Shown: positions 4,054 to 29,599, numbered from the stretch's first letter. The stretch: 64,000 nt of DNA from Candidatus Omnitrophota bacterium (GCA_016867115.1 VGKG01000003.1:673-64672); one strand, 5' to 3'. Numbers and translations are program-made. Notes: a model not told the origin generated them from the letters alone.

Positions 4054-4060
4054 AAGGCGA

Positions 4061-15732: not shown

Positions 15733-15957
15733 ATGAAAGAGAGGATCAGAGAAGTCTTAAGTAATCTCTTGAAAGTAAAACCCGAAGAGCTTAAGGACGA
15801 TGTTTCTTTACAGGATTCTATCGGCGTAGACTCGACCGAAATGGTTGAGACAGTGATTGCGCTGGAGAAGGCCTTCGGGAAGAAGTTAAGCACCAAGGAG
15901 ATCACCAAGTTCTCTTCGATAAGCGATATCGAAAAAGTAATTCAATCTAAAGCTTAG
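15733..15957 (+). CDS. acyl carrier protein
   Basis: 74 aa with the GVDSTEMVE phosphopantetheine-attachment serine motif. Confidence 0.85.
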   Translation: MKERIREVLSNLLKVKPEELKDDVSLQDSIGVDSTEMVETVIALEKAFGKKLSTKEITKFSSISDIEKVIQSKA

Positions 15958-16046: not shown

Positions 16047-16880
16047 TTGAAGATAATCGACTTAAGCCTGCCAATCGACGACAAGGCCTTTGAGGTCCAC
16101 CGTGTGGATATTGAGCGGGTCTCACATTCGGCGGGAGTAGAAAAGTTCAATCGGGTAATCATGGGCAAGACCCTGAAGGGCAGGCTTCAGTATCTTTTAG
16201 GTAAGCGCATCCTGAAGAAAGAAGACCTTCCGGATGAGGAGTTCCTTTCTCTCGAAGTAATCCATTCTCCGGTGCACATCGGCACACACCTGGATTATTC
16301 TTTCCACTACGGCTCAAAGTCAGAGGGCCGCCCCGCCAAGACCGCGGAGGAGATCCCGCTTGAGTGGTGTTATGCTGACGGCGTGAAACTGGACCTGACG
16401 CATAAGAAGCCAAACGAAGTGGTCAAAGCCCCGGACCTGGAGCAGGCCTTAAAAATGATCAATTATACGCTTAAGCATAATGACATTGTGCTCCTGCATA
16501 CAGGTGCGGATAAACTCTTTGGTTCTGCGAGATACTTCTCTGAATACCCCGGAATAGACATTTCCGCGATAGATTATCTCTTAGACCGCGGGGTCAAGAT
16601 TTTCGGCGTGGACACCATGGGCATTGACCGGCCTTACAAGTTCATGCTTAAGGAGTTCCTGGAGGAGAAAAAGCCGCTTTATCCGGCGCACTTTTACGGA
16701 AGGAAGAGAGAGTTTATCCATATCGAGCGCCTAAGCAATCTGGATAAGCTGCCGGCAGCCGGCTTTAAAGTCATCTGTTTTCCGGTGAAGATAAAATATA
16801 CCGGCGCTGCCTGGTCCAGGGTAGTGGCAGTACTAAGCGAGATAAGCCCTGAACGCGAAATGAGCCAAAAGGAGGTTTGA
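16047..16880 (+). CDS. PF04199 'putative cyclase' family protein (kynurenine-formamidase-like fold)
   Basis: HSPVHIGTHLDYSFHYG metal-binding motif (HxGTHxDxPxH-like). TTG start directly after the leader SD. Confidence 0.7.
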   Translation: MKIIDLSLPIDDKAFEVHRVDIERVSHSAGVEKFNRVIMGKTLKGRLQYLLGKRILKKEDLPDEEFLSLEVIHSPVHIGTHLDYSFHYGSKSEGRPAKTAEEIPLEWCYADGVKLDLTHKKPNEVVKAPDLEQALKMINYTLKHNDIVLLHTGADKLFGSARYFSEYPGIDISAIDYLLDRGVKIFGVDTMGIDRPYKFMLKEFLEEKKPLYPAHFYGRKREFIHIERLSNLDKLPAAGFKVICFPVKIKYTGAAWSRVVAVLSEISPEREMSQKEV

Positions 16881-16881
16881 G

Positions 16882-17421
16882 ATGGGACATACCTGCAATT
16901 CTATTATCATCAACGCCCCTTACGACTTAGTCTTTGATATCTCAAATGACATCCCGCGCTGGACAGAATTATTCGGCACAGAATACAAAAAGGCAGAGGT
17001 ACTGGAGAAAAAAGACAATAAGATCACCTTCCGCCTCACTGATGAGGACGATAAGTCCTGGGTCTCCTGGCGCCTCCTTTTTAAAGACAAATACTTCGCC
17101 TATGCCCAGCGCCATGAACCGTTATTCCCTTTTAAATACATGAAGATTGTTTGGCTCTATACCCCTAAGCCCGAGGGTGTGGCTTTGGCTACTGCGCAGA
17201 AGCGCGTACCGGCCGGTCCGATAAGGCCGGGTGAAGGAGGCCAAACCACGGACCCCTGTCCTGTTGAGATGGCCTGGATCCAGCACTTTGAGATGGATGA
17301 GAAGGCTAAGTTCAATGACCAGCAGATCGAGGGTTTTATTAATGAAGGCTCCCGCCACAACCTGAAGATCTTTAAAGAGATCATCGAGCGGGAAGCAGCT
17401 ACGGCTAAAGTTAAGAGTTAA
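16882..17421 (+). CDS. SRPBCC-superfamily polyketide cyclase/aromatase-like protein
   Basis: 179 aa with a START/Bet v1-like N-terminal pattern (IIINAPYDLVFDISNDIPRW...), immediately downstream of the cyclase. Confidence 0.65.
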   Translation: MGHTCNSIIINAPYDLVFDISNDIPRWTELFGTEYKKAEVLEKKDNKITFRLTDEDDKSWVSWRLLFKDKYFAYAQRHEPLFPFKYMKIVWLYTPKPEGVALATAQKRVPAGPIRPGEGGQTTDPCPVEMAWIQHFEMDEKAKFNDQQIEGFINEGSRHNLKIFKEIIEREAATAKVKS

Positions 17422-17430
17422 GCGGATCTG

Positions 17431-18552
17431 GTGAAAAAAAGCACATTTCTCATCCTTTGTCTTGAAGGCGCGATCCTCTCCTTCAATGTCGCCGCAGCCG
17501 CTGCCTTAGTTCCTTCGATCGCCAGGGATTTTGCTCTTTCTCAGTTCGTGGTAGGCAAAATGATCTGGCTGTACATGTTTCCGTACGGCATAGCTGCTTT
17601 AATTTATGGTCCCCTGGTAAGGGCGATTGATGCAAAGAAGATAGAACTGGTTTGCATATTTTTCTTTTCTCTATCAAATCTTCTAGCCGCCCTATCCGGA
17701 AACATTTATACTTGTTTCATTGCCCGGTTTTTTATGGGACTTTTTGGCGCTTCAGTCATACCGCTTGGACTAGTATTAATTGCAAATCATATTGAGCAGC
17801 AGAGGCGCGGTAAGTATGTGGGGATTTTTTTTAGTGCAACCTTTGTGGCTTCGCTCTTAGGCTTATTTTTAAGTGGTATCATTTCCTGGCGACTGATTTA
17901 TCTTATCCCTGCAATTGCCGGCCTTTTTCTTACCGGTATCATTTATCTTTATCTGCCCAGTTTCAAAGGAGATGTTACGGGCTTTAAGATAAATTATTTT
18001 GCTGCCCTGGGTGATAAAAGAATGCTTTTTATCTTTGCCTATATATTTGTTATCAGCCTTCTTTATCACGGCATCCAGCAGTGGCTGGGAGTTTATTTCT
18101 CAGACAGGTTCGGCTTTAGCCAGTTTTTGATCAGCGCACTCATTACTCTGACCAGCTTAAGCGGTATTTTCGGAGAGGCCTTTGGCGGAGTGCTGGCAGA
18201 TAGGTTCGGCAGGATACGCACTGCGAATCTAGGCGTTCTTTTGATGGTTATCAGCGCATTGCTTTTGATCTTGAAGCTCCCTTTTGTTCTTCTGGCGCTG
18301 TTAATGATCGTCTGGGGTTTAGGCTGGACCTTTAATCATGCCGGGATATCTACGGTGTTGACAGACCTGCCTCGGGAGTTCTTGAATGAGGCAGCGAGTT
18401 TAAACAGCAGCGTGCGTTTTATTTCAGGCGGCGTGGGTGCTGCGCTCGGCGGAGTGCTGATGCAGAGGGGTTTTAGCGTCGGGTTTGTGGTTTTCGGCGT
18501 GAGCCTGGCCGCATTGTTATTTTTAAGCAAAACATTGGAAAGCGGGAGGTAG
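17431..18552 (+). CDS. MFS transporter
   Basis: 373 aa with about 12 TM segments and the MFS signature around GPLVRAIDAKK. Confidence 0.8.
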   Translation: MKKSTFLILCLEGAILSFNVAAAAALVPSIARDFALSQFVVGKMIWLYMFPYGIAALIYGPLVRAIDAKKIELVCIFFFSLSNLLAALSGNIYTCFIARFFMGLFGASVIPLGLVLIANHIEQQRRGKYVGIFFSATFVASLLGLFLSGIISWRLIYLIPAIAGLFLTGIIYLYLPSFKGDVTGFKINYFAALGDKRMLFIFAYIFVISLLYHGIQQWLGVYFSDRFGFSQFLISALITLTSLSGIFGEAFGGVLADRFGRIRTANLGVLLMVISALLLILKLPFVLLALLMIVWGLGWTFNHAGISTVLTDLPREFLNEAASLNSSVRFISGGVGAALGGVLMQRGFSVGFVVFGVSLAALLFLSKTLESGR

Positions 18553-18554
18553 TC

Positions 18555-19328
18555 ATGGAGGATTTAAAAGGTAAAGTAGCCATAGTCACCGGTGCCAGCC
18601 GCGGGATAGGTAAGGCGCTTGCCTCTACCGCCGCAAGTTTAGGGATTAATCTAGCCATTGCCGCGCGCCAGGAAGGGCCGTTAAAAGAGACCGCGGATGA
18701 GATCGCCAAAAAATATAAGGTCGAGGTCCTGGCTGTACCCTGCGACGTGACGAAGCTGGGTGATCTTGAGAACCTGGTCAATAAGACCAGGGAAAGATTC
18801 GGCAAAATAGATATCCTGATCAATAATGCCGGAGTCTCCAGCCAGTACCCCTTTGACAAGCAGCCGTTAGAGGACTTTGAGAAGCTGGCGCACACGAATT
18901 ACTTAGGCTATGTGCGGCTCATCCGCCTGGTGATCAACGAGATGGTCGAAAGAAAATCCGGGGCCATCATCAATATGGTCTCAGGCTCGACCCTTTGCGA
19001 TCCCCTGCCCAGGAACTTTATCGTCTATAGTTCCTTAAAGGTGGGGCTGCGAGCTTTTTCTAAAGGCCTCTTCTGGGAGCTGCGCGACCACGGGATCAAG
19101 GTCACCTCGATCCTGCCCGGGGTAACGGATACGGACCTGACCGGAAAATTAAGCGAGATCACTGCCGATGCCGGGCGCCTGATGACTACCGAGGCGATCG
19201 AGAATGCGGTGAGGTTTGCCCTGACTGTCCCGGCAAATGTCTGTCCGTTAGAGATTGCGGTGATCAACCAGCAGACGCCCTGGACTGCGCCTGTAATCCC
19301 CTATAAACAAGCTCACCCGGAGAAATAA
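18555..19328 (+). CDS. SDR-family oxidoreductase (ketoreductase-like)
   Basis: GKVAIVTGASRGIGKA (TGxxxGxG), NNAG, catalytic YSSLK. Confidence 0.85.
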   Translation: MEDLKGKVAIVTGASRGIGKALASTAASLGINLAIAARQEGPLKETADEIAKKYKVEVLAVPCDVTKLGDLENLVNKTRERFGKIDILINNAGVSSQYPFDKQPLEDFEKLAHTNYLGYVRLIRLVINEMVERKSGAIINMVSGSTLCDPLPRNFIVYSSLKVGLRAFSKGLFWELRDHGIKVTSILPGVTDTDLTGKLSEITADAGRLMTTEAIENAVRFALTVPANVCPLEIAVINQQTPWTAPVIPYKQAHPEK

Positions 19329-19330
19329 CG

Positions 19331-19750
19331 ATGGATAAGCGCGACCTGAAGAACTTAAAAAAGAGGTACCTGGTCTGGCTCTATAAGAACACCAAAGAGG
19401 CCTTTGACCGGTATGAGCGTAAGTTCACCCAGTTAGATATTGATAAGTTTATGCTCGCGGAGATGGAGAAGGAGGTAGAAAGCTCCTTCATGCCTGCCGA
19501 GCTTGAAGGAGTGGCTAAGTTTATCGAAGACTTCCGCAATTACATCGAAGAAAAAGAAAAATCCTGCCTTGAGCTCAAATATCAGGATAAGAAGATCAAT
19601 CCCGAGTTCCTTTTCCTGGATATGAAACTGAGGGCCGTAGAGAAGGCGATTCAGAGCGAGCTGGGGAGTAAAGCCCTGGATGAGATAAAGGAGCTTTACC
19701 AGCAGGAGATGCTTAAAAGGATCATGACTGAGCGCGAAGAAAAACGTTAA
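19331..19750 (+). CDS. hypothetical charged/coiled-coil protein
   Basis: 139 aa, K/E-rich, in the operon, no recognisable family. Confidence 0.4.
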   Translation: MDKRDLKNLKKRYLVWLYKNTKEAFDRYERKFTQLDIDKFMLAEMEKEVESSFMPAELEGVAKFIEDFRNYIEEKEKSCLELKYQDKKINPEFLFLDMKLRAVEKAIQSELGSKALDEIKELYQQEMLKRIMTEREEKR

Positions 19751-20562
19751 TGGCGACAACTAAAGCAGCCTATCAAATCTTTATTCTTCTTGCGCTTATC
19801 GCTGGCATCATCATGTATTTTAGATTCATTGAGCGCCGCACCCTCTTTTTCCCGGCCAAGGAGTTTGATTATACGCCGGCAGCCCTTAAGCTGGAATACG
19901 AAGAAGTAAGTTTTAAGACCAAAGATAATGTAGAGATCAATGCCTGGTTTGTTCCGGCCAGGGATGCTAAGTTTACCGTGCTCTTTGCTCACGGCAATGC
20001 CGGAAATATCAGCCACCGCGTGGAAAAGATCGATTTTTTCCATGAGTTAGGTTTGAATGTCCTGATCTTTGATTACCGGGGATATGGCAAGAGCAGGGGT
20101 TCGCCTTCTGAAAAGGGTTTATATAAAGATGCCCAGGCTTCCTATGAATATCTTTTATCGCGCGGCATTAAGCCGGATGAGATCATCGGCTACGGAGAGT
20201 CTATCGGAGGTGCGGTGATCATTGATCTTGGCTCAAGGAATAAACTGACAGCCCTGATCTCTGACAGCACGCCCAGCTCCGCAAAGGACATGGTCAGGAT
20301 CATTTATCCCTTTCTGCCTTACTGGGTGTTTTCTGTGCGCATGGACTCTTTGAGCAAGGTGAAAGCGATCCACTACCCTAAGCTTTTTATCCATAGCGTA
20401 AATGATGAGATCGTGCCTTTTAAATTAGGGAAGAAGCTTTTTGAATCCGCGCCCCTGCCTAAGGAATTCCTGCAGATCCACGGAGGGCACAACAGTTGCT
20501 TTTTTGAATCAGAGGATGTGTTAAAAGAAAAAGTCAGCGCTTTTCTAAAAGGGCTTAAATAA
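19750..20562 (+). CDS. alpha/beta hydrolase (S9/BAAT-like)
   Basis: N-terminal TM segment, HGNAG oxyanion region, GYGESIGG nucleophile elbow, C-terminal His. Confidence 0.75.
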   Translation: MATTKAAYQIFILLALIAGIIMYFRFIERRTLFFPAKEFDYTPAALKLEYEEVSFKTKDNVEINAWFVPARDAKFTVLFAHGNAGNISHRVEKIDFFHELGLNVLIFDYRGYGKSRGSPSEKGLYKDAQASYEYLLSRGIKPDEIIGYGESIGGAVIIDLGSRNKLTALISDSTPSSAKDMVRIIYPFLPYWVFSVRMDSLSKVKAIHYPKLFIHSVNDEIVPFKLGKKLFESAPLPKEFLQIHGGHNSCFFESEDVLKEKVSAFLKGLK

Positions 20563-21479
20563 TGAAGATAATCGACGCCCACAGCCATTGGCTGCCGGAT
20601 GAGATCATCAATAACGCCCATTTTTTTCATAAGGGCTGGGCAGATATTGAGGCGCAGGTCAAGGCAATGCAGGAGGCAGGCATTGACCGGGCAGTCCTGA
20701 CTTATCCTACCTCGGATGCGCACTTAAAATTAGGCAGTATCAGCCTGGTAGCCAGGATCTATAATGATAATGTCGCTAAGATCCTTAAGCGCTATCCGGA
20801 TAAGTTTATCGGTGCGGCTATTATCCCGGTGGATAACGTTACGGGCATGGTGGATGAATTGCGCCGCGCCACGGAAGAGCTGGGATTTAAGGCGCTCTCT
20901 TTAGCCTCAAGCTACAACGGCAAATACCCGGATGATGCGATATTTATGCCTCTCTATAAAGAGGCGCAAGCAAAGAATATCCCGGTCTTTGTGCATTCGC
21001 AGATCGTCAACCCCATCGGTTTTGAACGGGTCAATGACCCCCTACTTACTCCGGTAGTCGAATACATCTTTGACATGACCATGTGTATCGGCAAGCTCTT
21101 AATGGCAGATATTTTTCGGGATTATCCTCAGCTGAAATTCATCTTTGCCAATTTCGGCGGGGCTACTGCATTCTTGCAGCACCGTTTTGACGCTACTTAC
21201 AATATGCTCAGGGGCATAAACTTTGTCAAAGACTTAAAGGGCCAGCCCACGCAGTTCTTAAAGAATATTTATGTGGATACCGGAGGCGACAGGATTAAGG
21301 CTAATTTTACGCTTGCCCTTGAACTCCTCGGGCCGCAGCATATTTTATGGGGCAGCGACTGGCCGGCAAAGAAGGATGTTGCATCGGGCATCAAAGTGGT
21401 AGAGGAACTAGGATTAAGCGAGCAGGATAAAGAGAATATTTTAGGTGGGAATATAGAGAGGTTGTTTACCGTTCTTTAA
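20562..21479 (+). CDS. amidohydrolase-2 (ACMSD/LigW-type metal-dependent hydrolase/decarboxylase) family protein
   Basis: MKIIDAHSHWLPDE start with TIM-barrel amidohydrolase_2 pattern. Last gene of the operon. Confidence 0.75.
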   Translation: MKIIDAHSHWLPDEIINNAHFFHKGWADIEAQVKAMQEAGIDRAVLTYPTSDAHLKLGSISLVARIYNDNVAKILKRYPDKFIGAAIIPVDNVTGMVDELRRATEELGFKALSLASSYNGKYPDDAIFMPLYKEAQAKNIPVFVHSQIVNPIGFERVNDPLLTPVVEYIFDMTMCIGKLLMADIFRDYPQLKFIFANFGGATAFLQHRFDATYNMLRGINFVKDLKGQPTQFLKNIYVDTGGDRIKANFTLALELLGPQHILWGSDWPAKKDVASGIKVVEELGLSEQDKENILGGNIERLFTVL

Positions 21480-21730
21480 TGCCCCTGTCGGTTTTCTCGC
21501 TCAGGTCGATTTTGCCCACAACTGCTTTTATACAGGGCACGCCAATGATCTTTCGCATTTCGGCGGCTGAAGAACTCGTCGCATTTGCTCTAGCAAATGC
21601 TCCTCAGGCAGCTTCAGCCGTGCCTGTTTTGTCGCTTCGCTCCACAGGCATTCCCTCAATGCTCAAGCTCCATTGGCTAAAATCGACATTCGCTCGAAAA
21701 TCCGCCAGGTGCATTTATGATATTTAACAA

Positions 21731-21909
21731 GTTTTAGAGTTTTGCTGGAGCGTGCATTAGAAAATTTTTGGCCACTCTATGACTTCAGTCTGCAAGGAAT
21801 TACGGTGAACGAAAGGCGGTAAGCTCACGTTAGCATCCAGCCCGAAAGTGAGCCGTAAACCGCAGCAGACGGCAAAAATTTTCAGCACGCGGAAGCAAAA
21901 CGCTAAAAC
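21731..21909 (+). mobile_element. MITE-like 180-bp element with 15-bp terminal inverted repeats, copy 1
   Basis: Termini GTTTTAGAGTTTTGC ... GCAAAACGCTAAAAC (reverse complements, 1 mismatch). Internal hairpin GCTCAC...GTGAGC. About 90% identical to the reverse complement of 39755-39945. Confidence 0.5.
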
Positions 21910-21943
21910 GATAGTTTGATGCATAATAAAAAGGAGAGAAGAA

Positions 21944-22693
21944 ATGCAGATGCAGAAGGATGTACATTTGACGGGAAAGGACCTGACCCAGATGGTGCAG
22001 TTGAGGCCCCAGGATGTGGGAGCTTATGCGATCGTGCCCGGGCCGCGCGACCGGCTGGATGTCTTGATTAAAAGAATCGAGAGCCCGGTAAAGAACTTTT
22101 CTTTTATGGAATACACCATGTATACCGGGACTTTCCAGGGAATAAAGGTCACCGGAATGAACGGCGGAAGATTCTCTACCGACACCTCCATTACTACCGA
22201 AGTGATGTGCAATGCCGGGATCAAGAATATCATCCGTATCGGCACCTGCGGGGCCTTGGATGAAAAGATGAAGGTCGGAGACCTCGTAGTAGTGGATAAG
22301 GTCCTCCGCGGCGACGGCGTGACTCCCTATTACGTAGATAAGGATTTCGTGACGACTGCGGATAAGCAGATCACGGATACTTTATGCGAGGTTTCCAAGG
22401 CCATGGGACTCTCTGTCTTGCGGGGCACAGTCTGGACTACGGATGCGCTTTTACGCGAGACGCGCGAGATCGTCGAGGCAAAGAGAAAAGAAGGCGCCAT
22501 TGCCGTGGATATGGTCTCCTCAACCCTGCTGACCCTGGCTCAGCTTTATCAGGTCAAGGCTGGATCGATCCTGGCGGTAAGCGACAATGTCATCACCGGA
22601 GAGATGGGTTTTATGAACCCGCTCTATTACATGGCAGAGACTAACCTGATCAATATTGCCCTTGAGACAGTGAAGAAACTGGAAGGAAAATGA
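21944..22693 (+). CDS. PNP/UDP-family (PNP-I) nucleoside phosphorylase
   Basis: IRIGTCGAL...VGDLVV core resembles DeoD/Udp-type phosphorylases. 249 aa. Confidence 0.7.
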   Translation: MQMQKDVHLTGKDLTQMVQLRPQDVGAYAIVPGPRDRLDVLIKRIESPVKNFSFMEYTMYTGTFQGIKVTGMNGGRFSTDTSITTEVMCNAGIKNIIRIGTCGALDEKMKVGDLVVVDKVLRGDGVTPYYVDKDFVTTADKQITDTLCEVSKAMGLSVLRGTVWTTDALLRETREIVEAKRKEGAIAVDMVSSTLLTLAQLYQVKAGSILAVSDNVITGEMGFMNPLYYMAETNLINIALETVKKLEGK

Positions 22694-23613
22694 AATACTC
22701 GCCCCTATTCTGGCCCATTGAGTTAAAGGGTAACGCTATTTGCATCCTGGATGAGACCAAATTGCCGCAGAGTCTTACCTATATAAAGGCGATTAATTAC
22801 CGGCAGGCCTGTAAGGCGATTAAAGAGATGAAGACGCGCGCCGTAGGCCAGGTCTTATTGGTAATGTACACCTTCCTTTTGGAGAGCCGCAAGAGAAATA
22901 CTCCTTTAAGCAAGGTGGCTGAGGCGATTAACGCTACCCGGCCGACCCTCTCTTTCAAATTCCTGACTGATATGGTCCTGGGATGGGGGAAGAGCGGTGC
23001 GCCGCTTGAAGATTCTATCAAAGGATTTTTAGGTGCGCTTAAAGAGGCGCGCATCCGTCAGGCGAAAGAGGCAAGCCATCTGCTGGAAGACGGCGATGCG
23101 GTCCTGACGCACTGCAATGTGAGCGGCCTTCTGCCCCTGATCGCAGAGTTCTGCAGACGCGATAAAAAGCGCATCAGCTTCTTTGTGACCGAAACCCGGC
23201 CGTATTTGCAGGGAACGCGGCTGACTGCGTGGGAGCTTAACCGGGCAAAGATAAATAACACTATCATCGCGGATAACATGGTGGCGCAGGTCATGTTTGA
23301 GAGAAAAATCAAGAAGGTCATTGTCGGAGCGGATAATCTGGCGCAGAACGGCGATATCGCTAATAAGATCGGCACCTATCAGATCGCCCTGCTGGCCAGG
23401 GATTTTAACATCCCGTTTTTTGTATTATGCCCTCCGCCGTCCGGCGCAGAGACAGGCTATGATATAGAGATCGAGGTCAGGCCTCCGAAAGAATTACTGG
23501 AGTTTCGCGGCAGGAGCCTTGCGCCAACAGGGGCAAAGGCATATTATCCGGCATTTGATATTACGCCTCATGAATTGATCACCAGGCATATTAACCTCAA
23601 TATTGTGCGATGA
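22690..23613 (+). CDS. eIF-2B alpha/beta/delta-family sugar-phosphate isomerase (methylthioribose-1-phosphate / ribose-1,5-bisphosphate isomerase-like)
   Basis: IF-2B family architecture with a Rossmann-like C-terminal half (VIVGADNLAQNGDIANKIGTYQIALLAR). Confidence 0.7.
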   Translation: MKYSPLFWPIELKGNAICILDETKLPQSLTYIKAINYRQACKAIKEMKTRAVGQVLLVMYTFLLESRKRNTPLSKVAEAINATRPTLSFKFLTDMVLGWGKSGAPLEDSIKGFLGALKEARIRQAKEASHLLEDGDAVLTHCNVSGLLPLIAEFCRRDKKRISFFVTETRPYLQGTRLTAWELNRAKINNTIIADNMVAQVMFERKIKKVIVGADNLAQNGDIANKIGTYQIALLARDFNIPFFVLCPPPSGAETGYDIEIEVRPPKELLEFRGRSLAPTGAKAYYPAFDITPHELITRHINLNIVR

Positions 23614-24605
23614 ATGAGCAGGAATTAAGAGAGCAGATCATCGGAGTAGGCAGAAGGCTTTATGATGCGGGCCTGGCAGTGGCTAAATCCGGAAATATCA
23701 GCTGCCGCCTGGATAAAGAGATTATCCTGATCACCACTACCGGCACTTTCTTAGGCGACCTAAAGGAAGATGATATTGTCAGATTTAATTTATCCACTTC
23801 TAAGCCTGAGGGAAGCAAAAGCCCCAGTTCAGAGCTTCCTCTGCACAGCCTGGTCTATAAAAACTTTCCTGCAAAAAACGTGATCCACGCTCATCCGCCG
23901 CTGGTCAATGCCTATTTTGCGGTGAATAATAGCTTAGAAGCGCTTACCTTTGAGACCAAGTTCTACCTGGGCGATATTCCGGTAGTGGCGCAGGATACTC
24001 CGACAGTGACTGATCCGGAAGCAGTGATCGCAGCCCTCAAGACGAACAACCTTGTTGTGCTGAAAAACCACGGCATAGTGGCGATCAGCGATAAATTTGA
24101 AGACGGGTTGGCCCTGATCGAGGCCCTGGAAGAGGCAGTCAGGACCGCAGCAGTAGCCAGGCTTTTTAAAAAGGAACCAAAAGATACGCTGGACTCGGCC
24201 TTAAAAGAGACTTTGACCAGGAATGATACTGCATATCCTATGTTTTCGCGCGAGCACATCCAAGCGATCGTGGAGCGGGTAAACAAGGATGATTTTGTAG
24301 GGCAAAAGGGCAAAGAGCTGGATCTGACTCTGCGCCTTGCGATAAAGCTCGACGGCACAGACGAAGGCTTCACCTTTAACTTTGAAAAGGGCAGGATCAC
24401 CAGGCTTGATTCCGGAGTTGATGCGCCTTTTATTGTCTCAGGGCCCCGGGATGTCTGGGAGCAGGTATTCCTGGGTAAAGTTGACTCATTTGTCGCGGTT
24501 ACTCAGGGAAAGATGAAGTTAGTGGGTCAACTCGGACAACTCTCCAAATGGTATGTGCCTTTTACCCGGGTATTCGAACATTTTAAACAGGTGAAATTCA
24601 AATGA
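23610..24605 (+). CDS. class II aldolase/adducin-domain protein fused to a C-terminal SCP2-like domain
   Basis: N-terminal GNISCR...HAHPP...NHGIVA motifs of the fuculose-P aldolase/MtnB fold, then about 110 aa of SCP2-like sequence (GKELDLTLRLAIKLDGTDEGFTFNF...). Confidence 0.7.
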   Translation: MNEQELREQIIGVGRRLYDAGLAVAKSGNISCRLDKEIILITTTGTFLGDLKEDDIVRFNLSTSKPEGSKSPSSELPLHSLVYKNFPAKNVIHAHPPLVNAYFAVNNSLEALTFETKFYLGDIPVVAQDTPTVTDPEAVIAALKTNNLVVLKNHGIVAISDKFEDGLALIEALEEAVRTAAVARLFKKEPKDTLDSALKETLTRNDTAYPMFSREHIQAIVERVNKDDFVGQKGKELDLTLRLAIKLDGTDEGFTFNFEKGRITRLDSGVDAPFIVSGPRDVWEQVFLGKVDSFVAVTQGKMKLVGQLGQLSKWYVPFTRVFEHFKQVKFK

Positions 24606-26092
24606 CCGCCAGGATTCTGATTAACGGAGATCTGGTTGAGACGGGCCTAAAGCAGGCAGTGATCAATCCCTCTACGGGCGGACCGATCACTGAGGTCTGT
24701 GTTGCTCAGGCCAGAGAGATAGAGATGGCTTTAGCTTCAGCGCGGCAAGCTTTTGACAAAGGCCCCTGGCCGGGACTTAGCCTCAAAGAGCGCAAAACCT
24801 GCCTTTTAAAGATCGCTCAGGGGATCTTAGAGAAAGCCGGAGAACTCGCAGATTTAGAGACCCTGAATACCGGAAAGCCGATCAAGGAATCCACCTTTAT
24901 GGATATTCCTTCAAGCGCAGAGACTTTCAAACATTTTGCCGGACATCTGGAAGAATACCTTGAAGAAGAGACGCTCAATATCCAGTCTCAGGTCTCAACT
25001 GCCAAGAGCCGGCTCGTGCGCGAGCCAAGGGGTGTAGTAGTCCTGATCGTGCCCTGGAATTATCCTTTATTGATCGCTTCCTGGAAGATGGCTCAAGCCC
25101 TGGCTGCGGGGAATACGGTGATCCTGAAGCCTTCCAGCCTCACTCCTTTGACGGCCCTGGAATTAGGAAAGATCATACTGGATGCCGGAATACCCGCGGG
25201 AGTAGTAAATATCCTTAACGGAAGCGGAGAAGTCCTGGGTGAAAAACTCTGTACAGACTCCCGAGTGGATATGGTCTCCTTTACCGGAAGTAACGAAGTG
25301 GGAAAGAAGATCATCAGCTACTGCGCCGCTTCCGCCAAAAAACTGGTCATGGAACTGGGGGGAAAATCCGCCGGGATCGTTTTGGAGGATGCGGACCTGG
25401 AATCAGCGGTGAACGGCTCGCTCTGTTCCATATTCTTAAACCAGGGTCAGATGTGCACTGCCATGTCGCGCATCTTTGTGCAAGAGGGGATCTTCGATAA
25501 GTTTGTCGCTGATTTTACTGATAAAGCCAAGCGCCTTAAGCTCGGCGAGGGTTCGGACTTTCAGACCCAGATGGGCCCGTTGATCTCTGAGGCACAGCGT
25601 AAACGCGTTTTATCCTATGTGGAGAAGGCTAAGAAAGACGGCGCAAAACTGCTCTGCGGCGGAAAGGTCCCGGATGAGGCAGGCCTTAAAAAGGGATTCT
25701 TCTTTGAGCCCGCTGTTTTTACGGAGATCAAACCACAGGCAGTTATTTTCAGGGAGGAGATCTTCGGTCCGGTAGCGATCATCAATAAGTTTTTCGGCTT
25801 CGAGGAAGCGGTCGAGCTTGCTAACAGCACGGAGTTTGGCCTGGCTGCCTGCATCTGGACAAAGGACCCGGTTAAGGCGAAGGATCTAGCTGGCCGCCTC
25901 AACGCCGGTACGGTCTGGGTGAATACTTACGGCATGTTTTTTAACGAACTTCCCTACGGCGGCTTTAAGCAGAGCGGTTTTGGCAAGGAGCTGGGCAGGG
26001 AGGGGTTCCTGGAATACACGCGCCTGAAGAATGTTTTAGAAGATGCCTCGGGCGAGGCCAGGCCAATCGTCAATTACTGGTACGGATTTTAA
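24602..26092 (+). CDS. NAD(P)-dependent aldehyde dehydrogenase
   Basis: ELGGKS and QGQMCTA catalytic motifs. 496 aa. Confidence 0.9.
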   Translation: MTARILINGDLVETGLKQAVINPSTGGPITEVCVAQAREIEMALASARQAFDKGPWPGLSLKERKTCLLKIAQGILEKAGELADLETLNTGKPIKESTFMDIPSSAETFKHFAGHLEEYLEEETLNIQSQVSTAKSRLVREPRGVVVLIVPWNYPLLIASWKMAQALAAGNTVILKPSSLTPLTALELGKIILDAGIPAGVVNILNGSGEVLGEKLCTDSRVDMVSFTGSNEVGKKIISYCAASAKKLVMELGGKSAGIVLEDADLESAVNGSLCSIFLNQGQMCTAMSRIFVQEGIFDKFVADFTDKAKRLKLGEGSDFQTQMGPLISEAQRKRVLSYVEKAKKDGAKLLCGGKVPDEAGLKKGFFFEPAVFTEIKPQAVIFREEIFGPVAIINKFFGFEEAVELANSTEFGLAACIWTKDPVKAKDLAGRLNAGTVWVNTYGMFFNELPYGGFKQSGFGKELGREGFLEYTRLKNVLEDASGEARPIVNYWYGF

Positions 26093-26105
26093 GTGAGGAG
26101 AGAGC

Positions 26106-27602
26106 ATGGACCTGATCAAACTCTTGGCAGAAGACGCGTATAGACTAAAGGATAAGCCGGCAGTCATTTTCCGGGACCAGCCGATCACCTTCGGCCGGTT
26201 AAGGGAGACGAGTTTCCGCCTGGCAGACAGCCTAAGGACCCTGGGGATAAAAAAGGGCGACAAGGTAGGGATATATCTGCCGAATTGCCCGGAATACATC
26301 TGCAGTTATTTAGCTATCTGGTATCTGGGCGCAACTGCCGTGCCCCTGGATTATATGCTCACTACCGAAGAGCTGGTCTCCTGCCTCTCTCACTCCGAGG
26401 CAAAGTGCCTGATCGCCAGGAATAAGCCCAATATTTCCTTTTCGCAGATCAAAGAAAGGTGTGTGGTCTTAAATGAGATCATTAGCTGCCAGGAAAAAAC
26501 AGACCTGACCCTTTGGTTTGAAGACCTGGTGACAAAGGGCAGGGATAATCCCGAACGCGACTACATAGAAGATAAGGACCTGGCGATCATCTTTTACACC
26601 TCCGGCACAACCGGAAAGCCTAAAGGCGTCCTTATCAATTATCCTCACCTGGGTGCGCCGCCCATGTCCATGGACTTTTTTGCCGATCTGCGGGAGGACG
26701 ATATCGCTGTCTGCGCCCTCCCCTTTTCTCATTTAGGCGGCCTGATCTATATCCAGAACTGCATCTCCTACGGCATTACCGTAGTATTATTAGAGCGTTT
26801 CCTGCCGCTTGAGTTCTTAAGGAGCATCCAGAAATACCGGGCCACCTGTTTCTGGATCGTGCCTTCCATGTATTATGCGATACTGCAGCTTAAAGAGTTT
26901 GAGGTCTTTGACCTGTCTAGCTTGCGCTGGATGGTGACCTTCGGAGCCTCCAGTTCTCCCGACGCGCTGCGCAGGTTCCATAAGTATTGCCCCAATGCCC
27001 ACCTCCTGAACGGCTGGGGCCTTACCGAGACCAATGCACCGACGACAGTCCTGCCGATAGGTTCAGGTAAAATAGAAAGCGTAGGTAAACCCGCTCCCTG
27101 GATCGAAGTAAAGATCTTTGACGACAACGACCGCGAGCTTGCTCCTGGTAATGTGGGCGAGGTGGCGGTGAAGAGCTGGGTGGTCAGCGACGGGTATTAT
27201 AAGGACGCCGAGCTTACCGCAGAGACTATGCGTAACGGCTACTTTTTCACCGGTGACCTGGGAAAATATGATACGGAAGGGAACCTCTATATCGTGGGCA
27301 GGAAAAAGGAGATGATCAAGGTGGGCGGCCAGATCCTCTTTGAGCCGGAGGTTGAGGCAGTGCTTTTTCGCCATCCGGATATTGCCGAAGCGGCGGTCAT
27401 CGGTGTAGCGGATAAATTAAGGGGAGAGGTGCCCAAGGCATTCATAGCCTTGAAAGAAGGAAGCAAGCTCGGCGAAGATGAACTGCGCTCATTTCTGCGC
27501 CAGCATCTGGCCGGCTTCAAGATCCCGCATTATTTTGAGTTTGTCTCAGCGCTTCCCAAGAACCGCACGGGAAAAATCGACAAAGAACAGTTAAGGAAAT
27601 AG
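26106..27602 (+). CDS. AMP-dependent synthetase/ligase (acyl-CoA synthetase family)
   Basis: YTSGTTGKPKGV AMP-binding motif and the C-terminal lysine region. Confidence 0.85.
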   Translation: MDLIKLLAEDAYRLKDKPAVIFRDQPITFGRLRETSFRLADSLRTLGIKKGDKVGIYLPNCPEYICSYLAIWYLGATAVPLDYMLTTEELVSCLSHSEAKCLIARNKPNISFSQIKERCVVLNEIISCQEKTDLTLWFEDLVTKGRDNPERDYIEDKDLAIIFYTSGTTGKPKGVLINYPHLGAPPMSMDFFADLREDDIAVCALPFSHLGGLIYIQNCISYGITVVLLERFLPLEFLRSIQKYRATCFWIVPSMYYAILQLKEFEVFDLSSLRWMVTFGASSSPDALRRFHKYCPNAHLLNGWGLTETNAPTTVLPIGSGKIESVGKPAPWIEVKIFDDNDRELAPGNVGEVAVKSWVVSDGYYKDAELTAETMRNGYFFTGDLGKYDTEGNLYIVGRKKEMIKVGGQILFEPEVEAVLFRHPDIAEAAVIGVADKLRGEVPKAFIALKEGSKLGEDELRSFLRQHLAGFKIPHYFEFVSALPKNRTGKIDKEQLRK

Positions 27603-27610
27603 CTCTAACC

Positions 27611-28642
27611 ATGCAGGATATCAAAGACCTGAATAAGGAGGAACTATCCGCCCTTCTTAAAAAATGGCAAGAGCCGGTGTACCATGCCGGGCAGATCCTT
27701 TCCTGGATCTATAAAAAGGGGGCCGCGGATTTCTCCCGGATGAGCGACTTATCCCTCTCCTTAAGAGAGAAGCTGAAAGAGGGCTTTTATATTCTGGGTT
27801 TAAAGCCTGTTTCTACCCGGAAGTCAGAAGATGATACAGAAAAGCTTCTCTTCGAACTTAAGGATGGCAATCTTATTGAATCGGTGATCATCCCGGCAAA
27901 GGAGAGGACCACGGGCTGCGTCTCAACGCAGGTAGGCTGCAAGTCCGGCTGCCGATTCTGCGCAAGCGGCATGCTTGGCTTTAAAAGAAATCTTAGCGCA
28001 GGAGAGATCCTGGAAGAAGTCCTGCAGATGAATACATATATCTTGCCCGGTAAACTTACCCACATTGTATTTATGGGTATCGGCGAGCCGCTGGATAATT
28101 ACGACAACGTTTTAAAGGCGATCCGGATCATTAATTCCGATTATAGTTTTAATATCGCAAGCCGCCGGATCACCATTTCAAGCTGCGGCATCATCCCGGG
28201 GATCAGGAAGCTGGCAAAGGAGAACCTGCAGGTTGAGCTTTCCATTTCTCTGCACGCAGCCGAAGATAAGACGCGCTCTGAGCTTATGCCGGTGAACAAA
28301 AAATATCCTTTAAAAGAGCTGATGGCATGCCTGCGCGAGTACATCTCGGAGACTGACCGCCAGGTCACCTTTGAATACGTCCTGATCCGGGGGCTGAATG
28401 CGGATTTGCAAAGTGCCGTAAGTTTAAGTAAAATATTAAAGCCGCTTAAGCTTTGTAAGGTGAACCTGCTCCCGGCCAATCCGATCGAAGAGCTGGGAAT
28501 CGAGCCGCCGGGAAAATTAGAGATCCTGTTTTTCCGGGATTATCTGCTGAAGAAAGGGATAAACACGACTTTAAGGATGCCGCGCGGCCGGGATATCGAG
28601 GCTGCCTGCGGACAGTTGAGGTTAAGATATGAGAAGAAATAG
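27611..28642 (+). CDS. rlmN: 23S rRNA (adenine2503-C2)/tRNA methyltransferase RlmN, radical SAM
   Basis: GCKSGCRFC cluster motif and conserved RlmN N-terminal domain. 343 aa. Confidence 0.85.
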   Translation: MQDIKDLNKEELSALLKKWQEPVYHAGQILSWIYKKGAADFSRMSDLSLSLREKLKEGFYILGLKPVSTRKSEDDTEKLLFELKDGNLIESVIIPAKERTTGCVSTQVGCKSGCRFCASGMLGFKRNLSAGEILEEVLQMNTYILPGKLTHIVFMGIGEPLDNYDNVLKAIRIINSDYSFNIASRRITISSCGIIPGIRKLAKENLQVELSISLHAAEDKTRSELMPVNKKYPLKELMACLREYISETDRQVTFEYVLIRGLNADLQSAVSLSKILKPLKLCKVNLLPANPIEELGIEPPGKLEILFFRDYLLKKGINTTLRMPRGRDIEAACGQLRLRYEKK

Positions 28643-29273
28643 GCTTTGGGTCCTATTGTTCTATAGTTCTATAGTTCTACTGTTAAATGGATGCGTTAAG
28701 AGAGAGATCAAGAATATTGATTCCAAGGGGACTAACATCATCTGTTTCGGCGACAGCCTTACCTTTGGCTACGGAGTAGGCGGTGGCGAAGACTATCCGT
28801 CGGCATTAGCCAAGATGCTGGATATTCCGGTGATCAACGCCGGCATCGACGGAGATACCTCTACAGAGGCCCTGAAGCGCATAGGCTCCGATGTCCTGAA
28901 CCGCAAACCGCTTTTGGTGATTTTGGAGTTCGGAGGGAACGATTTCTTAAGGAAGGTGCCTAAAGAAGTCACAGTAGACAATGTCAGGCAGATGGTGAGG
29001 GAGATCCAGAAAGCCGGGGCAATGGTAGCGGTTGTCGACATCAGCGCCGGGCTATTCTTAAGGGATTACCGGATACTGCTTTCGCGCATCGCCCGCCAGG
29101 ACCAGGCCATATTTGTACCGGCGGTATTAAGCGGGATCATCACCGATCCCACCATGAAGAGCGACTTCATCCATCCAAACGGCGAAGGCTACAAGCTGAT
29201 CGCAGAGCGCATCCACCGCGCTATCTCGCCTTACCTGGAAAAGCAGGCCCGCTCAAAGAGCCCCAAAAAATAA
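28629..29273 (+). CDS. SGNH/GDSL hydrolase (arylesterase/TesA-like lipoprotein)
   Basis: IICFGDSLTFGYG block I and GGNDF block III. Confidence 0.8.
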   Translation: MRRNRLWVLLFYSSIVLLLNGCVKREIKNIDSKGTNIICFGDSLTFGYGVGGGEDYPSALAKMLDIPVINAGIDGDTSTEALKRIGSDVLNRKPLLVILEFGGNDFLRKVPKEVTVDNVRQMVREIQKAGAMVAVVDISAGLFLRDYRILLSRIARQDQAIFVPAVLSGIITDPTMKSDFIHPNGEGYKLIAERIHRAISPYLEKQARSKSPKK

Positions 29274-29294: not shown

Positions 29295-29380
29295 TGGTGC
29301 CGGAGAAGGGACTTGAACCCCCATGAGGTTGCCCTCAGTAGCTTTTGAGGCTACCGCGTCTGCCATTTCGCCACTCCGGC
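29295..29380 (-). tRNA. tRNA-Leu (anticodon CAA)
   Basis: Reverse complement GCCGGAG...CTCAAAA...long variable arm...GGTTCAAGTCC...CTCCGGCACCA. 86 nt with encoded CCA. Confidence 0.85.
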
Positions 29381-29523: not shown

Positions 29524-29599
29524 GGGGCCGTAGCTCAATTGGGAGAGCACTTGCATGGCATGCAAGGGGTCGAGGGTTCGAATCCCTCCGGCTCCACCA
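29524..29599 (+). tRNA. tRNA-Ala (anticodon GGC)
   Basis: GGGGCCGTAGCTCAATTGGGAGAGC...CTTGCATGGCATGCAAG...GGTTCGAATCC...CGGCTCCACCA. G3:U70 identity pair present. Confidence 0.9.

Follow-up and report, generated by a model that had tools for sequence, protein, structure and literature searches.

In the DHAP shunt, composed of MtnP or MtnN/MtnK, MtnA and Ald2, and in the 5-deoxyribose pathway of B. thuringiensis, composed of DrdK, DrdI and DrdA, an aldose-1-phosphate derived from a 5'-deoxynucleoside is passed through an MtnA-family isomerase and a class II metal aldolase, yielding DHAP and an aldehyde (PMC6079011). The fluoroacetate pathway of Streptomyces cattleya and Nocardia brasiliensis comprises 5'-FDA synthase, the FlB phosphorylase, 5-FDRP isomerase, an aldolase and fluoroacetaldehyde dehydrogenase; it acts on a 5'-substituted 5'-deoxyadenosine made from SAM, and the C2 acid is what the pathway serves to produce (PMC3999930). 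In the adenosylhopane route, defined by HpnH and HpnG, the ribose carbons of SAM are retained in the product (PMC13459092). Catalogues of Omnitrophota MAGs list KS-CLF pairs and 'ladderane'-type clusters and describe no nucleoside-trimming module (PMC10132072; PMC9902471).

The window analysed here, a stretch of 64,000 nucleotides from a Candidatus Omnitrophota bacterium, carries five genes whose products probably degrade a SAM-derived nucleoside to a sugar phosphate and a small activated acid. We tentatively favour a reading in which this module is a dedicated variant of the DHAP shunt, clearing the 5'-deoxyadenosine released by a neighbouring BchE-like B12 radical SAM enzyme within a KS/CLF-ACP (type II PKS or fatty-acid-like) biosynthetic cluster. 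If so, a radical SAM step of high flux would be relieved of its inhibitory by-product, whose carbon would re-enter the same lipid or polyketide pathway.

Layout of the locus

Five tightly packed ORFs, all on the + strand, occupy positions 21944-27602 of the window. They encode precisely the five enzyme classes that the initial annotation had assigned to these coordinates, with every Pfam domain match far over its cut-off, and the B12 radical SAM gene upstream and rlmN downstream also lie where it had placed them. Synteny joins the module, the eight genes separating it from the radical SAM gene, and the genes upstream of the latter into one conserved cluster:

Upstream half of the conserved cluster and radical SAM gene
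9812-10078, +, 88-aa ORF
10085-11089, +, PanE/ApbA-like reductase
11099-11698, +, TIGR04076-family protein
11702-12964, +, ketosynthase KS1 with Cys-His-His
12957-14192, +, KS2, CLF-like partner with Arg/Asp/Asn replacing Cys/His/His
14195-15655, +, B12-binding radical SAM enzyme, BchE/HpnJ-like, 486 aa (BchE 203 bits, HpnJ 149 bits, both under cut-offs)
Downstream half of the conserved cluster
15733-15957, +, ACP
16047-16880, +, PF04199 cyclase
16882-17421, +, SRPBCC polyketide cyclase/dehydrase
17431-18552, +, MFS transporter
18555-19328, +, SDR ketoreductase
19331-19750, +, unknown protein, 139 aa
19750-20562, +, alpha/beta hydrolase
20562-21479, +, Amidohydro_2
21479-21943, +, variable spacer with a doubtful 82-aa ORF and two long imperfect hairpins
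Module
21944-22693, +, nucleoside phosphorylase, NP-I (hexameric PNP/UP-type), 249 aa (PF01048 PNP_UDP_1, 118 bits)
22690-23613, +, MtnA-like aldose-1-phosphate/ketose-1-phosphate isomerase, 307 aa (PF01008 IF-2B, 187 bits)
23610-24605, +, class II metal-dependent aldolase fused to SCP2 (PF00596 Aldolase_II, 118 bits, and PF02036 SCP2)
24602-26092, +, NAD(P)+ aldehyde dehydrogenase, non-acylating, 496 aa (PF00171 Aldedh, 555 bits)
26106-27602, +, AMP-forming acyl-CoA (or acyl-carrier) ligase, 498 aa (PF00501 and PF13193 AMP-binding)
Behind the module
27611-28642, +, rlmN (RlmN TIGR00048, 376 bits, over cut-off 290)
28629-29273, +, GDSL hydrolase, packed behind rlmN

The phosphorylase gene has a strong Shine-Dalgarno sequence (AAAGGAG) ahead of its start, and a 4-bp overlap is found at every junction from the phosphorylase to the aldehyde dehydrogenase, which is separated from the ligase by 13 nt. 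The ligase lies 8 nt from rlmN and the GDSL hydrolase overlaps rlmN, both genes being probably co-transcribed with the ligase in the window. The spacer that precedes the module folds with an MFE of -79 kcal/mol (z = -5.2), matched no family in an Rfam search, and may contain the promoter or leader of the module; it is missing from one related locus (L004), where the Amidohydro_2 and phosphorylase genes abut.

The cluster shares with non-actinobacterial type II PKS and antiSMASH 'ladderane' clusters a KS with Cys-His-His, a CLF-like partner without the triad, an ACP, an SDR ketoreductase, SRPBCC and PF04199 cyclases and a B12 radical SAM gene. It departs from ladderane clusters in its radical SAM protein, whose score on the ladderane-cluster model TIGR04072 is 69 bits, far short of the cut-off of 360. 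The unity of the module with this radical SAM/KS cluster had been overlooked in the initial annotation.

Predicted chemistry and active sites of the module

In the favoured reading, each radical SAM turnover would free one 5'-deoxyadenosine, which the phosphorylase would convert with phosphate to adenine and 5-deoxyribose-1-phosphate. The isomerase would yield 5-deoxyribulose-1-phosphate, whose cleavage by the aldolase would release DHAP together with acetaldehyde, or with 2-methylthioacetaldehyde should the module take MTA as well. The dehydrogenase and ligase, presumably acting in succession, would carry this short aldehyde to an acid and the acid to a thioester. What the analysis shows are domain assignments, active-site residues, close gene packing and a conserved radical SAM link; the choice of substrate, the flux direction, which aldehyde is formed, and the use of the dehydrogenase product by the ligase are inferred. 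This enzyme logic, already recognized in the initial annotation, fits DHAP-shunt chemistry, the catalytic residues being kept; enzyme set, gene order and translational coupling all count in its favour, as does the biochemical precedent that exists for every enzyme step in the DHAP shunt/Drd and fluoroacetate routes. Phosphorylase, isomerase, class II aldolase and aldehyde dehydrogenase appear in identical order in the fluoroacetate pathway (PMC3999930), from which the locus nonetheless differs in that no SAM halogenase or DUF62 gene was found in the cluster, where the upstream SAM consumer is the B12 radical SAM protein, and in that a ligase and PKS-like machinery come after these steps.

The phosphorylase is DeoD/Udp-like, as had been annotated, and in this it differs from its counterpart in the shunt; MtnP identity was rejected (TIGR01694, 27 bits against a cut-off of 275). 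Its phosphate loop (G33-P-R35-D-R37), Arg98 and the purine-type S213-D214-N215 motif with the catalytic Asp are all in place. The nearest PDB entries are B. cereus adenosine/purine NP, S. pyogenes UP and S. solfataricus hexameric MTAP, the alignments placing the protein equally near this last, MTA-accepting enzyme and PNP or UP, and the HpnG model is matched weakly (53 bits). In place of the usual E-M-E ribose motif the protein reads D189-M190-V191, and family conservation and PDB alignments reveal that the ribose-binding Glu is absent family-wide, which counts against the DHAP-shunt reading. On the other hand, Met17 aligns with the 5'-OH-contacting His of UP/PNP, a site occupied across the family by Met or another non-polar residue, and this fits a 5'-deoxy substrate.

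The same substitution argues against ordinary nucleoside catabolism, in which ribose-1-phosphate would be isomerized to ribulose-1-phosphate and cleaved to DHAP and glycolaldehyde, the latter yielding glycolate (and glycolyl-CoA); bacteria would here use an abbreviated form of the archaeal non-carboxylating pentose bisphosphate route. Although a PNP/UP-like phosphorylase would suit such a pathway, as would a weak match of the aldolase to the haloarchaeal ribulose-1-phosphate aldolase model (65 bits, cut-off 300), we regard it as very improbable: ribose-1-P kinase and RuBP phosphatase are absent from the window, the radical SAM linkage, SCP2 domain and lipid contexts are left unaccounted for, and the isomerase is not of the ribose-1,5-bisphosphate type. 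The initial annotation had left that last assignment to be settled between the two clades, and the protein scores as MtnA-type, with 114 bits against the ribose-1,5-bisphosphate isomerase model (cut-off 314) and, in PDB comparisons, 140-160 bits for MtnA structures versus 72-79 bits for ribose-1,5-bisphosphate isomerases. Catalytic Cys142 (within T-H-C-N) and Asp215 (within G-A-D-N) are kept. The isomerase is, however, shorter than MtnA, with a 7-residue deletion right after the Cys loop, and falls under the MtnA equivalog cut-offs (subfamily model 227 bits, cut-off 271; TIGR00512 210 bits, cut-off 279) while passing that of eIF-2B_rel (192 bits, cut-off 186).

The aldolase consists of a catalytic domain (~residues 1-185) and a C-terminal SCP2 lipid-binding domain (~residues 206-331). 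As in the shunt, catalytic residues are conserved here and in the isomerase: the Zn-binding His triad on which the initial annotation had made the aldolase assignment depend is present (His93, His95 and His154), together with Glu75, and phosphate-binding motifs are retained beside these metal ligands. Active-site residues, which include Asn29 and Ser73-Ser74-Glu75, are invariant in 26 sequences at identities down to 25%. In an AlphaFold model the C-terminal domain has an alpha/beta, SCP2-like structure. Fold matches are to FucA, YgbL and DrdA, B. thuringiensis DrdA (5-deoxyribulose-1-P aldolase) being among the nearest solved relatives. MtnB models are matched weakly and in part (68 bits, covering residues 2-98; 53 bits, cut-off 137), which could instead indicate a methionine-salvage-like dehydratase acting on methylthioribulose-1-phosphate, with no aldolase activity. 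This is most unlikely: the aldolase models give the better score (112 bits), ~170 related loci were all without an enolase-phosphatase, dioxygenase or RuBisCO-like partner, and the aldehyde dehydrogenase that always comes after the aldolase suits an aldehyde product.

The SCP2 domain had been overlooked in the initial annotation. PF02036 is matched by 13 of 16 diverse C-terminal domains of the aldolase family, their profile matches solved SCP2 structures, and the fused aldolases form a deep family of at least 17 groups at sub-40% identity. The dehydrogenase contains its catalytic Glu251 (ELGGK) and Cys285 (GQMC), and its best named models (betaine-, aminobutyr- and phenylacetaldehyde dehydrogenases) each score under their cut-offs. 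The ligase has complete core motifs (SGTTGKPKG, GWGLTE, TGD, GKIDK), scores 410 bits against the PRK06187 long-chain ligase subfamily, and has FadD5, feruloyl-, oxalyl- and 4-coumarate-CoA ligases and FadD13 as nearest solved structures; it thus groups with medium/long-chain and aromatic acid ligases and not with acetyl-CoA synthetases, a Gly occupying what we take to be the site of the pocket-closing Trp in acetate-specific synthetases. The SCP2 fusion and the presence of dehydrogenase and ligase as fixed members set the module apart from the DHAP shunt and Drd systems. Neither the fusion nor the ligase type is accounted for by plain 5'-deoxyadenosine or MTA salvage, and both count against the DHAP-shunt reading, the SCP2 domain having no obvious use for a C2 aldehyde.

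Conservation of the radical SAM link

Comparison of neighbourhoods across the ~170 loci shows that, from lineage to lineage, no gene accompanies the module more constantly than the B12 radical SAM gene. The two are adjacent in 34 of 39 close loci and in 11 of the 15 distant fusion loci with an isomerase gene, and the link to this B12 radical SAM subfamily persists through at least four gene orders (types A-D). Type-D loci and their variants have the radical SAM gene immediately next to that of the phosphorylase, and the pair stays adjacent in L131, L093 and L116 though other genes are shuffled. The BchE-like enzyme is the likely source of the nucleoside substrate. The rlmN gene has fared differently as a neighbour of the module: among close loci it adjoins the module in 30 of 39, among distant ones in a single case out of 19, itself a locus with a non-fusion aldolase, and near-confinement to the close clade marks the adjacency as incidental. 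Of the two radical SAM consumers between which the initial annotation had placed a salvage cluster, only the upstream one therefore stands as a partner.

Two cluster contexts can be discerned. The first, found in the window, is the type II PKS-like KS/CLF-ACP-ketoreductase-cyclase set, instead of the solitary or sugar transporter-associated setting of the DHAP shunt and Drd systems. The second lacks PKS genes and contains an MMPL protein with a sterol-sensing domain, two LolA-like proteins and DUF1302, the MMPL and LolA-like genes being lipid export genes, and again the radical SAM gene is kept beside the module. These contexts bear on the free-standing, whole-cell salvage of 5'-deoxyadenosine or MTA proposed in the initial annotation, in which the position of the module would reflect inherited synteny only. 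Such salvage would employ the same enzyme logic, Omnitrophota do keep large gene-order blocks (the boundary genes ACCA-PadR recur at distant loci), and stand-alone isomerase-aldolase-ALDH trios, such as L112, occur in other lineages and in unrelated neighbourhoods. Even so, it appears improbable: the module remains in the cluster after four or more internal rearrangements, with aldolase identities of 33-42%, the non-PKS context preserves the radical SAM gene, rlmN is a neighbour in the close clade only, and the SCP2 domain and ligase type go unexplained. The SCP2-fused aldolase and the place of the module in a larger radical SAM/lipid cluster thus point to more than housekeeping salvage, and the self-contained cluster originally proposed gives way to a conserved member of a radical SAM/KS cluster.

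The dedicated DHAP-shunt variant draws support from the lasting link to one B12 radical SAM subfamily and accommodates the stand-alone trios, which fit a general by-product-handling role. Yet we know of no by-product salvage genes inside the cluster of a single radical SAM enzyme, and the substrates of the in-cluster nucleosidases HpnG, MqnB and FlB are pathway intermediates. A possible, if doubtful, alternative is that the module supplies a building block by trimming an adenosyl adduct, in the manner of HpnH/HpnG or the fluoroacetate pathway. A hydrophobic acceptor, for example an acyl or polyketide chain, would receive the 5'-deoxyadenosyl moiety of SAM through the action of the radical SAM enzyme or a partner, and the phosphorylase would take off adenine, as HpnG does on adenosylhopane. 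Isomerase and SCP2-fused aldolase would then cleave the sugar to acceptor-CH2-CHO and DHAP, the dehydrogenase would form acceptor-CH2-COOH, and the ligase would activate this acid for KS/CLF or lipid assembly, amounting to a radical 'carboxymethylation' with C4'-C5' of SAM.

Consistent with this alternative are the retention of the SCP2 fusion throughout the aldolase family, the fatty or aromatic acid-type ligase, of which type-D loci hold two or three paralogues, the invariably lipid or polyketide contexts, and a radical SAM-phosphorylase adjacency that outlasts gene shuffling. To our knowledge, however, no B12-type radical SAM enzyme adenosylates a substrate, and the class B (B12-binding) BchE/HpnJ-like protein of the window matches neither the HpnH nor the MqnE model, nor does its type-D homologue, which has the same profile pattern. 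Furthermore, some trios have no radical SAM gene within 10 kb, adduct and acceptor cannot be named, and the AlphaFold model places SCP2 relative to the active site with low confidence (linker pLDDT < 50, pTM 0.57). MqnE/MqnB and SalL/SalT offer precedents for adduct trimming. Further precedents are HpnH/HpnG (PMC13459092) and the fluoroacetate route (PMC3999930). HpnH/HpnG and MqnE/MqnB likewise pair a radical SAM and a PNP_UDP_1-family enzyme in the cluster of a lipid or quinone pathway (PMC13459092), whereas here the radical SAM enzyme is of another type, the sugar is predicted to be cut by isomerase and aldolase and not retained, and squalene-hopene cyclase and Mqn genes are absent. Lastly, a BCAT-like fold-type IV PLP enzyme adjoins isomerase-aldolase in two contexts. 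Its presence in place of the phosphorylase in some clades weighs against the DHAP-shunt reading, and it could aminate a valued aldehyde, as adduct trimming would provide.

Enzymes of the five-gene module

The five open reading frames of the initial annotation are borne out at its coordinates, on the plus strand, and their products match the PNP_UDP_1, IF-2B, Aldolase_II, Aldedh and AMP-binding domains claimed for them, all well over the Pfam cut-offs.

21944–27602, plus strand: genes for the phosphorylase, MtnA-like isomerase, aldolase-SCP2, aldehyde dehydrogenase (ALDH) and AMP-forming ligase
22508–22516, within the phosphorylase gene: residues 189–191 (D-M-V)
27611–28642: rlmN
28629–29273: GDSL hydrolase gene

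A strong ribosome-binding site precedes the start of the phosphorylase gene, and every junction among the first four genes is a 4-bp overlap; gaps of 13 and 8 nt precede the ligase gene and rlmN, respectively, and the GDSL hydrolase gene overlaps rlmN. The window derives from an uncultured Candidatus Omnitrophota bacterium. An NCBI/JGI protein of 'Candidatus Omnitrophica bacterium' has the same sequence as its isomerase (100% identity), and JGI contig Ga0194111_10000834 has the same gene order as the window.

The aldolase presents the features of a class II enzyme, with a His triad, a catalytic Glu and a DHAP-phosphate site, and its residues Asn29, Ser73-Ser74, Glu75, His93, His95 and His154 are invariant in 26 sequences reaching down to 25% identity. 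Its fold matches those of FucA and DrdA, the 5-deoxyribulose-1-phosphate aldolase of B. thuringiensis (rmsd 2.1–2.5 Å for the best-fitting chains), and its nearest solved relatives (YgbL, FucA enzymes and DrdA) are about equidistant from it. MtnB models match only part of the protein, at 53–68 bits and under their cut-offs, and no MtnC, MtnD, MtnW or MtnX homologues were seen near the module in the window cluster or in related loci. On scores and missing partner genes, assignments of the aldolase as an MtnB dehydratase, a 4-epimerase or an OtnC-type decarboxylase were rejected, and a route through an MtnB-type dehydratase is, those partial matches notwithstanding, extremely improbable.

Residues ~206–331 of the aldolase, overlooked in the initial annotation, form an SCP2 lipid-binding domain. 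The PF02036 match of the window protein itself is marginal (E = 3e-4), and the family was found in 13 of 16 diverse aldolase C-terminal domains, with a best E-value of 7e-9. Furthermore, a profile of the C-terminal domain finds solved SCP2 proteins and the C-termini of alkylsulfatases, and the AlphaFold model shows an SCP2-like alpha/beta C-terminal domain joined by a low-confidence linker. Matches in the whole-model fold search are dominated by the aldolase domain; the SCP2 assignment was settled by profile and Pfam searches of the C-terminus alone. The fusion family is deep: an exhaustive search of 1.8 billion cluster representatives yielded ~25 full-length representatives at 25–57% identity to the query, which fall into 17 groups at <40% mutual identity and keep both domains in all cases. 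In the literature, no description of an aldolase-SCP2 fusion was found.

In the isomerase, the catalytic Cys and Asp of MtnA/DrdI-type enzymes are matched by Cys142 (T-H-C-N) and Asp215 (G-A-D-N) on alignment with B. subtilis MtnA, and seven residues are deleted just past the Cys loop. The protein passes the cut-off of the eIF-2B_rel subfamily (192 vs. 186), falls short of those of two MtnA models (227 bits vs. 271 and 210 bits vs. 279) and scores 114 bits with the ribose-1,5-bisphosphate (R15P) isomerase model TIGR00511, against a cut-off of 314. Among solved structures, full-length MtnA-type chains score 133–161 bits and R15P isomerases 72–79 bits. Neither AMP phosphorylase, nor ribose-1-phosphate kinase, nor RuBisCO occurs in the window cluster or related loci, and an R15P isomerase identity was rejected on these scores and absent partner genes. 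The initial annotation had offered to give way to an isomerase of the R15P clade with AMP-pathway partners, or to an aldolase devoid of the Zn-binding His triad; since the isomerase is MtnA-like and the aldolase keeps its catalytic residues, among them His93, His95 and His154, neither was observed.

The phosphorylase, a hexameric PNP/UP-type enzyme without the uridine-phosphorylase insertion, has the phosphate loop, Arg98, Arg residues that bind phosphate and a Ser-Asp-Asn motif of purine type. Its family profile scores highest with three solved enzymes: at 120 bits with the adenosine/purine phosphorylase of B. cereus, at 109 bits with the uridine phosphorylase of S. pyogenes and at 108 bits with a hexameric S. 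solfataricus enzyme that accepts MTA (MTAP). The window enzyme lies about equally near PNP, UP and hexameric MTAP. A TIGR01694 score of 27 bits, against a cut-off of 275, agrees with the earlier view that it is not a canonical MtnP, and no MtnK/DrdK kinase, the alternative maker of pentose-1-phosphate, was found. Ordinary ribose-1-phosphate catabolism, which the kinship with PNP and UP would accommodate, is highly unlikely for an enzyme followed by an MtnA-like isomerase.

To our knowledge, the E-M-E ribose-binding motif is near-universal in the NP-I phosphorylase/nucleosidase family. The window phosphorylase has D-M-V in its place and, across the homologues sampled, Asp and Met are invariant and Val is found in at least 90%; none of the explanations so far accounts for this loss of Glu. 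In UP and PNP, an N-terminal His contacts the 5'-OH. Alignments set that His against Met17, a position held family-wide by Met or another non-polar residue, and the candidacy of His8 for this role was hence rejected. Downstream in the module, the dehydrogenase has its catalytic Glu251 and Cys285 and the ligase a full set of adenylation motifs; among solved structures, the ligase and the neighboring radical SAM protein find generic relatives only.

Host cluster and gene neighborhoods

Upstream of the module lies a cluster with two ketosynthase-like genes and a B12 radical SAM gene.

11099–11698: TIGR04076-family protein
11702–12964: KS1
12957–14192: KS2
14195–15655, plus strand: BchE/HpnJ-like B12 radical SAM protein
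19331–19750: 139-aa protein with no family match

The Cys-His-His triad is complete in KS1. KS2 has Arg, Asp and Asn at the triad positions and is better matched by the actinorhodin CLF than by the actinorhodin KS; it is a CLF-like partner with Arg at the Cys position, where the usual residue is Gln. Together with an ACP, an SDR ketoreductase, an SRPBCC cyclase/dehydrase and a PF04199 cyclase, all encoded in the cluster, this pair constitutes the signature of a type II PKS-like system; no malonyl-CoA:ACP transacylase was found in the cluster. KS-CLF pairs and antiSMASH 'ladderane'-class clusters have already been catalogued in the Omnitrophota (PMC10132072; PMC9902471). The radical SAM protein matches the NCBIfam models of BchE (203 bits), HpnJ (149 bits) and B12-dependent methylases, and it shows no match to the HpnH and MqnE models at E ≤ 1e-5. 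The TIGR04076-family and 139-aa proteins are conserved cluster members across clades.

The species-representative genome collection contains 143 relatives, and the best 80 of these 143 all belong to the Omnitrophota. Window proteins were mapped onto 87 loci from the window's own (close) clade and onto 84 from distant fusion relatives, the metagenome scan for the latter being based on a six-sequence subgroup of 23 distant fusion proteins.

Gene order in the main types of locus
Type A (window): PanE-like reductase, TIGR04076 protein, KS1, KS2, B12 radical SAM, ACP, PF04199 cyclase, SRPBCC cyclase, MFS, SDR, 139-aa unknown, Amidohydro_2, phosphorylase, isomerase, aldolase, ALDH, ligase, rlmN, GDSL
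Type B: ...SDR, B12 radical SAM, Amidohydro_2, (BCAT-like PLP enzyme), isomerase, aldolase, ALDH; neither phosphorylase nor ligase within 10 kb
Type C: ACCA, PadR, ligase, phosphorylase, isomerase, small IF-2B-like ORF, aldolase, ALDH, B12 radical SAM, PanE-KS-ACP-cyclase block; without rlmN
Type D: MMPL transporter with sterol-sensing domain, B12 radical SAM, phosphorylase, isomerase, small IF-2B-like ORF, aldolase, ALDH, two LolA-like proteins, DUF1302, 2–3 ligases; without KS genes
Stand-alone: isomerase-aldolase(-ALDH) alone in unrelated surroundings; few loci

Module neighbors in loci flanked on either side by 6 kb or more
Gene: close clade (n = 39); distant relatives (n = 19, 15 also with the isomerase)
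B12 radical SAM: 34/39; 11 (11/15 fusion loci also with the isomerase)
Phosphorylase: 36/39; 11
ALDH: 39/39; 12
Ligase: 32/39; 9
rlmN: 30/39; 1

The link to a BchE-like B12 radical SAM gene, which abuts the phosphorylase gene directly in type D loci, has been kept through repeated rearrangement and in two different host pathways. The initial annotation had set a salvage cluster beside two radical SAM consumers; its connection to the B12 radical SAM enzyme is persistent, whereas adjacency to rlmN is specific to the window's clade. The lone distant locus with rlmN encodes an aldolase that is not a fusion, indicating that this adjacency is a clade-specific accident, and a functional tie to rlmN was rejected. 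Housekeeping salvage unconnected to the cluster would fit the few stand-alone loci and is, next to so persistent a link, an unlikely role for the module.

The second host context of the radical SAM gene and module core, seen in the type D locus L116 (4110–15681), with its MMPL transporter bearing a sterol-sensing domain, two LolA-like proteins and DUF1302, resembles lipid-export sets such as those of the hopanoid transporter HpnN or of aryl-polyene export. In clades without the phosphorylase, a BCAT-like fold-type IV PLP enzyme (Aminotran_4) fills the slot just upstream of the isomerase in two unrelated contexts (L091, 8201–9013; L100, 7838–8641); its scores with BCAT models, 175–203 bits, fall short of the cut-offs. 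Loci of types C, D and E have a small ORF of 145–165 aa with a partial IF-2B domain between isomerase and aldolase (L116, 9516–10004; L089, 9483–9926; L090, 9306–9785), and it may encode an accessory isomerase subunit. The window's clade is devoid of this ORF, and its isomerase is also shorter (307 aa vs. 320–338 aa).

Possible roles of the module

The enzyme logic put forward in the initial annotation is well supported, with precedents for the proposed chemistry in the DHAP shunt/Drd pathway (PMC6079011) and in the fluoroacetate pathway (PMC3999930). The latter is the closer match, since its phosphorylase, isomerase, aldolase and aldehyde dehydrogenase take a SAM-derived 5'-substituted deoxyadenosine to a C2 acid. 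The upstream SAM nucleophile-adenosyl transferase of fluoroacetate-type pathways is, however, missing from the window cluster, where no fluorinase, chlorinase or DUF62 domain was found in any ORF (1827–29273). With the HpnH/HpnG and MqnE/MqnB systems, the module shares the in-cluster pairing of a PNP_UDP_1-family enzyme with a radical SAM enzyme in conserved adjacency, but the window radical SAM protein is not of the adenosylating HpnH or MqnE type. No radical-SAM-linked DHAP shunt or nucleoside module of this kind was found described in the literature. The module is better described as a radical-SAM-coupled, SCP2-bearing variant of the DHAP shunt, integral to a conserved Omnitrophota type II PKS/lipid cluster. 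A disposal-type pathway is here hard-wired to one B12 radical SAM subfamily. A lipid-binding domain, an acyl ligase and an aldehyde dehydrogenase are further acquisitions, and the pathway is found in over 140 species-level genomes of an almost entirely uncultured phylum.

The most economical reading, which we favor tentatively, is that the module clears 5'-deoxyadenosine from the neighboring radical SAM enzyme. The enzyme would release 5'-deoxyadenosine stoichiometrically and the module would remove it, with DHAP and the activated acid going back to the pathway. Such clearance accounts for the constancy of the radical SAM linkage without recourse to new chemistry, but it leaves unexplained the SCP2 domain, the ligase's non-acetate type and the phosphorylase's altered sugar pocket. 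The main rival, possible if doubtful, takes the substrate to be an adenosylated hydrophobic intermediate that is trimmed to a chain-CH2-COOH building block, following the logic of HpnH/HpnG (PMC13459092). Adenosylation of a hydrophobic chain by the B12-type radical SAM enzyme would be followed by cutting of the adduct to chain-CH2-CHO and DHAP, the work of the phosphorylase, the isomerase and the SCP2-fused aldolase. The carboxylate newly formed by oxidation would, once activated with CoA, prime the KS/CLF pair or a lipid-assembly step. With this scheme, the SCP2 domain and the ligases find an explanation, as do the PLP enzyme and the lipid-export context. On the other hand, it sits badly with the stand-alone isomerase-aldolase-ALDH trios and requires adenosylation by a B12-type radical SAM enzyme, for which we know of no precedent. 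In its fuller form, similarly doubtful, SAM would serve as a two-carbon donor, and lipids or polyketides would undergo radical carboxymethylation under anaerobic conditions, widely in the Omnitrophota and in other uncultured lineages. The probability that the module reflects a new use of the ribose carbons of SAM is substantial.

If clearance holds true, a biosynthetic cluster with by-product recycling built in may here be seen for the first time, which would be useful for engineering high-flux radical SAM pathways; if adduct trimming does, it may reveal new SAM-derived C2 building-block chemistry in anaerobic lipid or polyketide synthesis. Under both outcomes, the module provides clonable enzymes for learning the product of the conserved Omnitrophota KS/CLF-radical SAM cluster.

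Regions flanking the module and cluster

3595–9697: MarR regulator, outer-membrane factor, HlyD-type adaptor, AcrB-type RND pump and P-II-like protein, between PadR and the PanE-like gene
21479–21944: spacer between the Amidohydro_2 and phosphorylase genes
21492–21518 and 21674–21700: arms of a long imperfect hairpin
21731–21910: second long imperfect hairpin, ~180 nt
29298–29380, minus strand: tRNA gene
29524–29596, plus strand: tRNA gene

In the spacer lies an 82-aa ORF, doubtful and without a family match, and the RNA fold of the spacer reaches −79 kcal/mol (z = −5.2). Rfam searches returned nothing relevant, either over the whole window at gathering thresholds or over 21400–22000 at E ≤ 10, and a known riboswitch or leader before the phosphorylase gene was rejected for lack of a match. 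The element has no second copy elsewhere in the window, and the spacer is missing from the related locus L004, where the Amidohydro_2 gene directly adjoins the phosphorylase gene. It is possibly a structured leader or an insertion of MITE type. At the upstream end of the cluster, the efflux block looks like an insertion or a clade-specific product exporter, since in the type C loci L088–L090 PadR is followed directly by the ligase-phosphorylase module. At the other end, the transcription unit closes after the GDSL hydrolase gene, its downstream end marked by the two tRNA genes and terminator-like hairpins.
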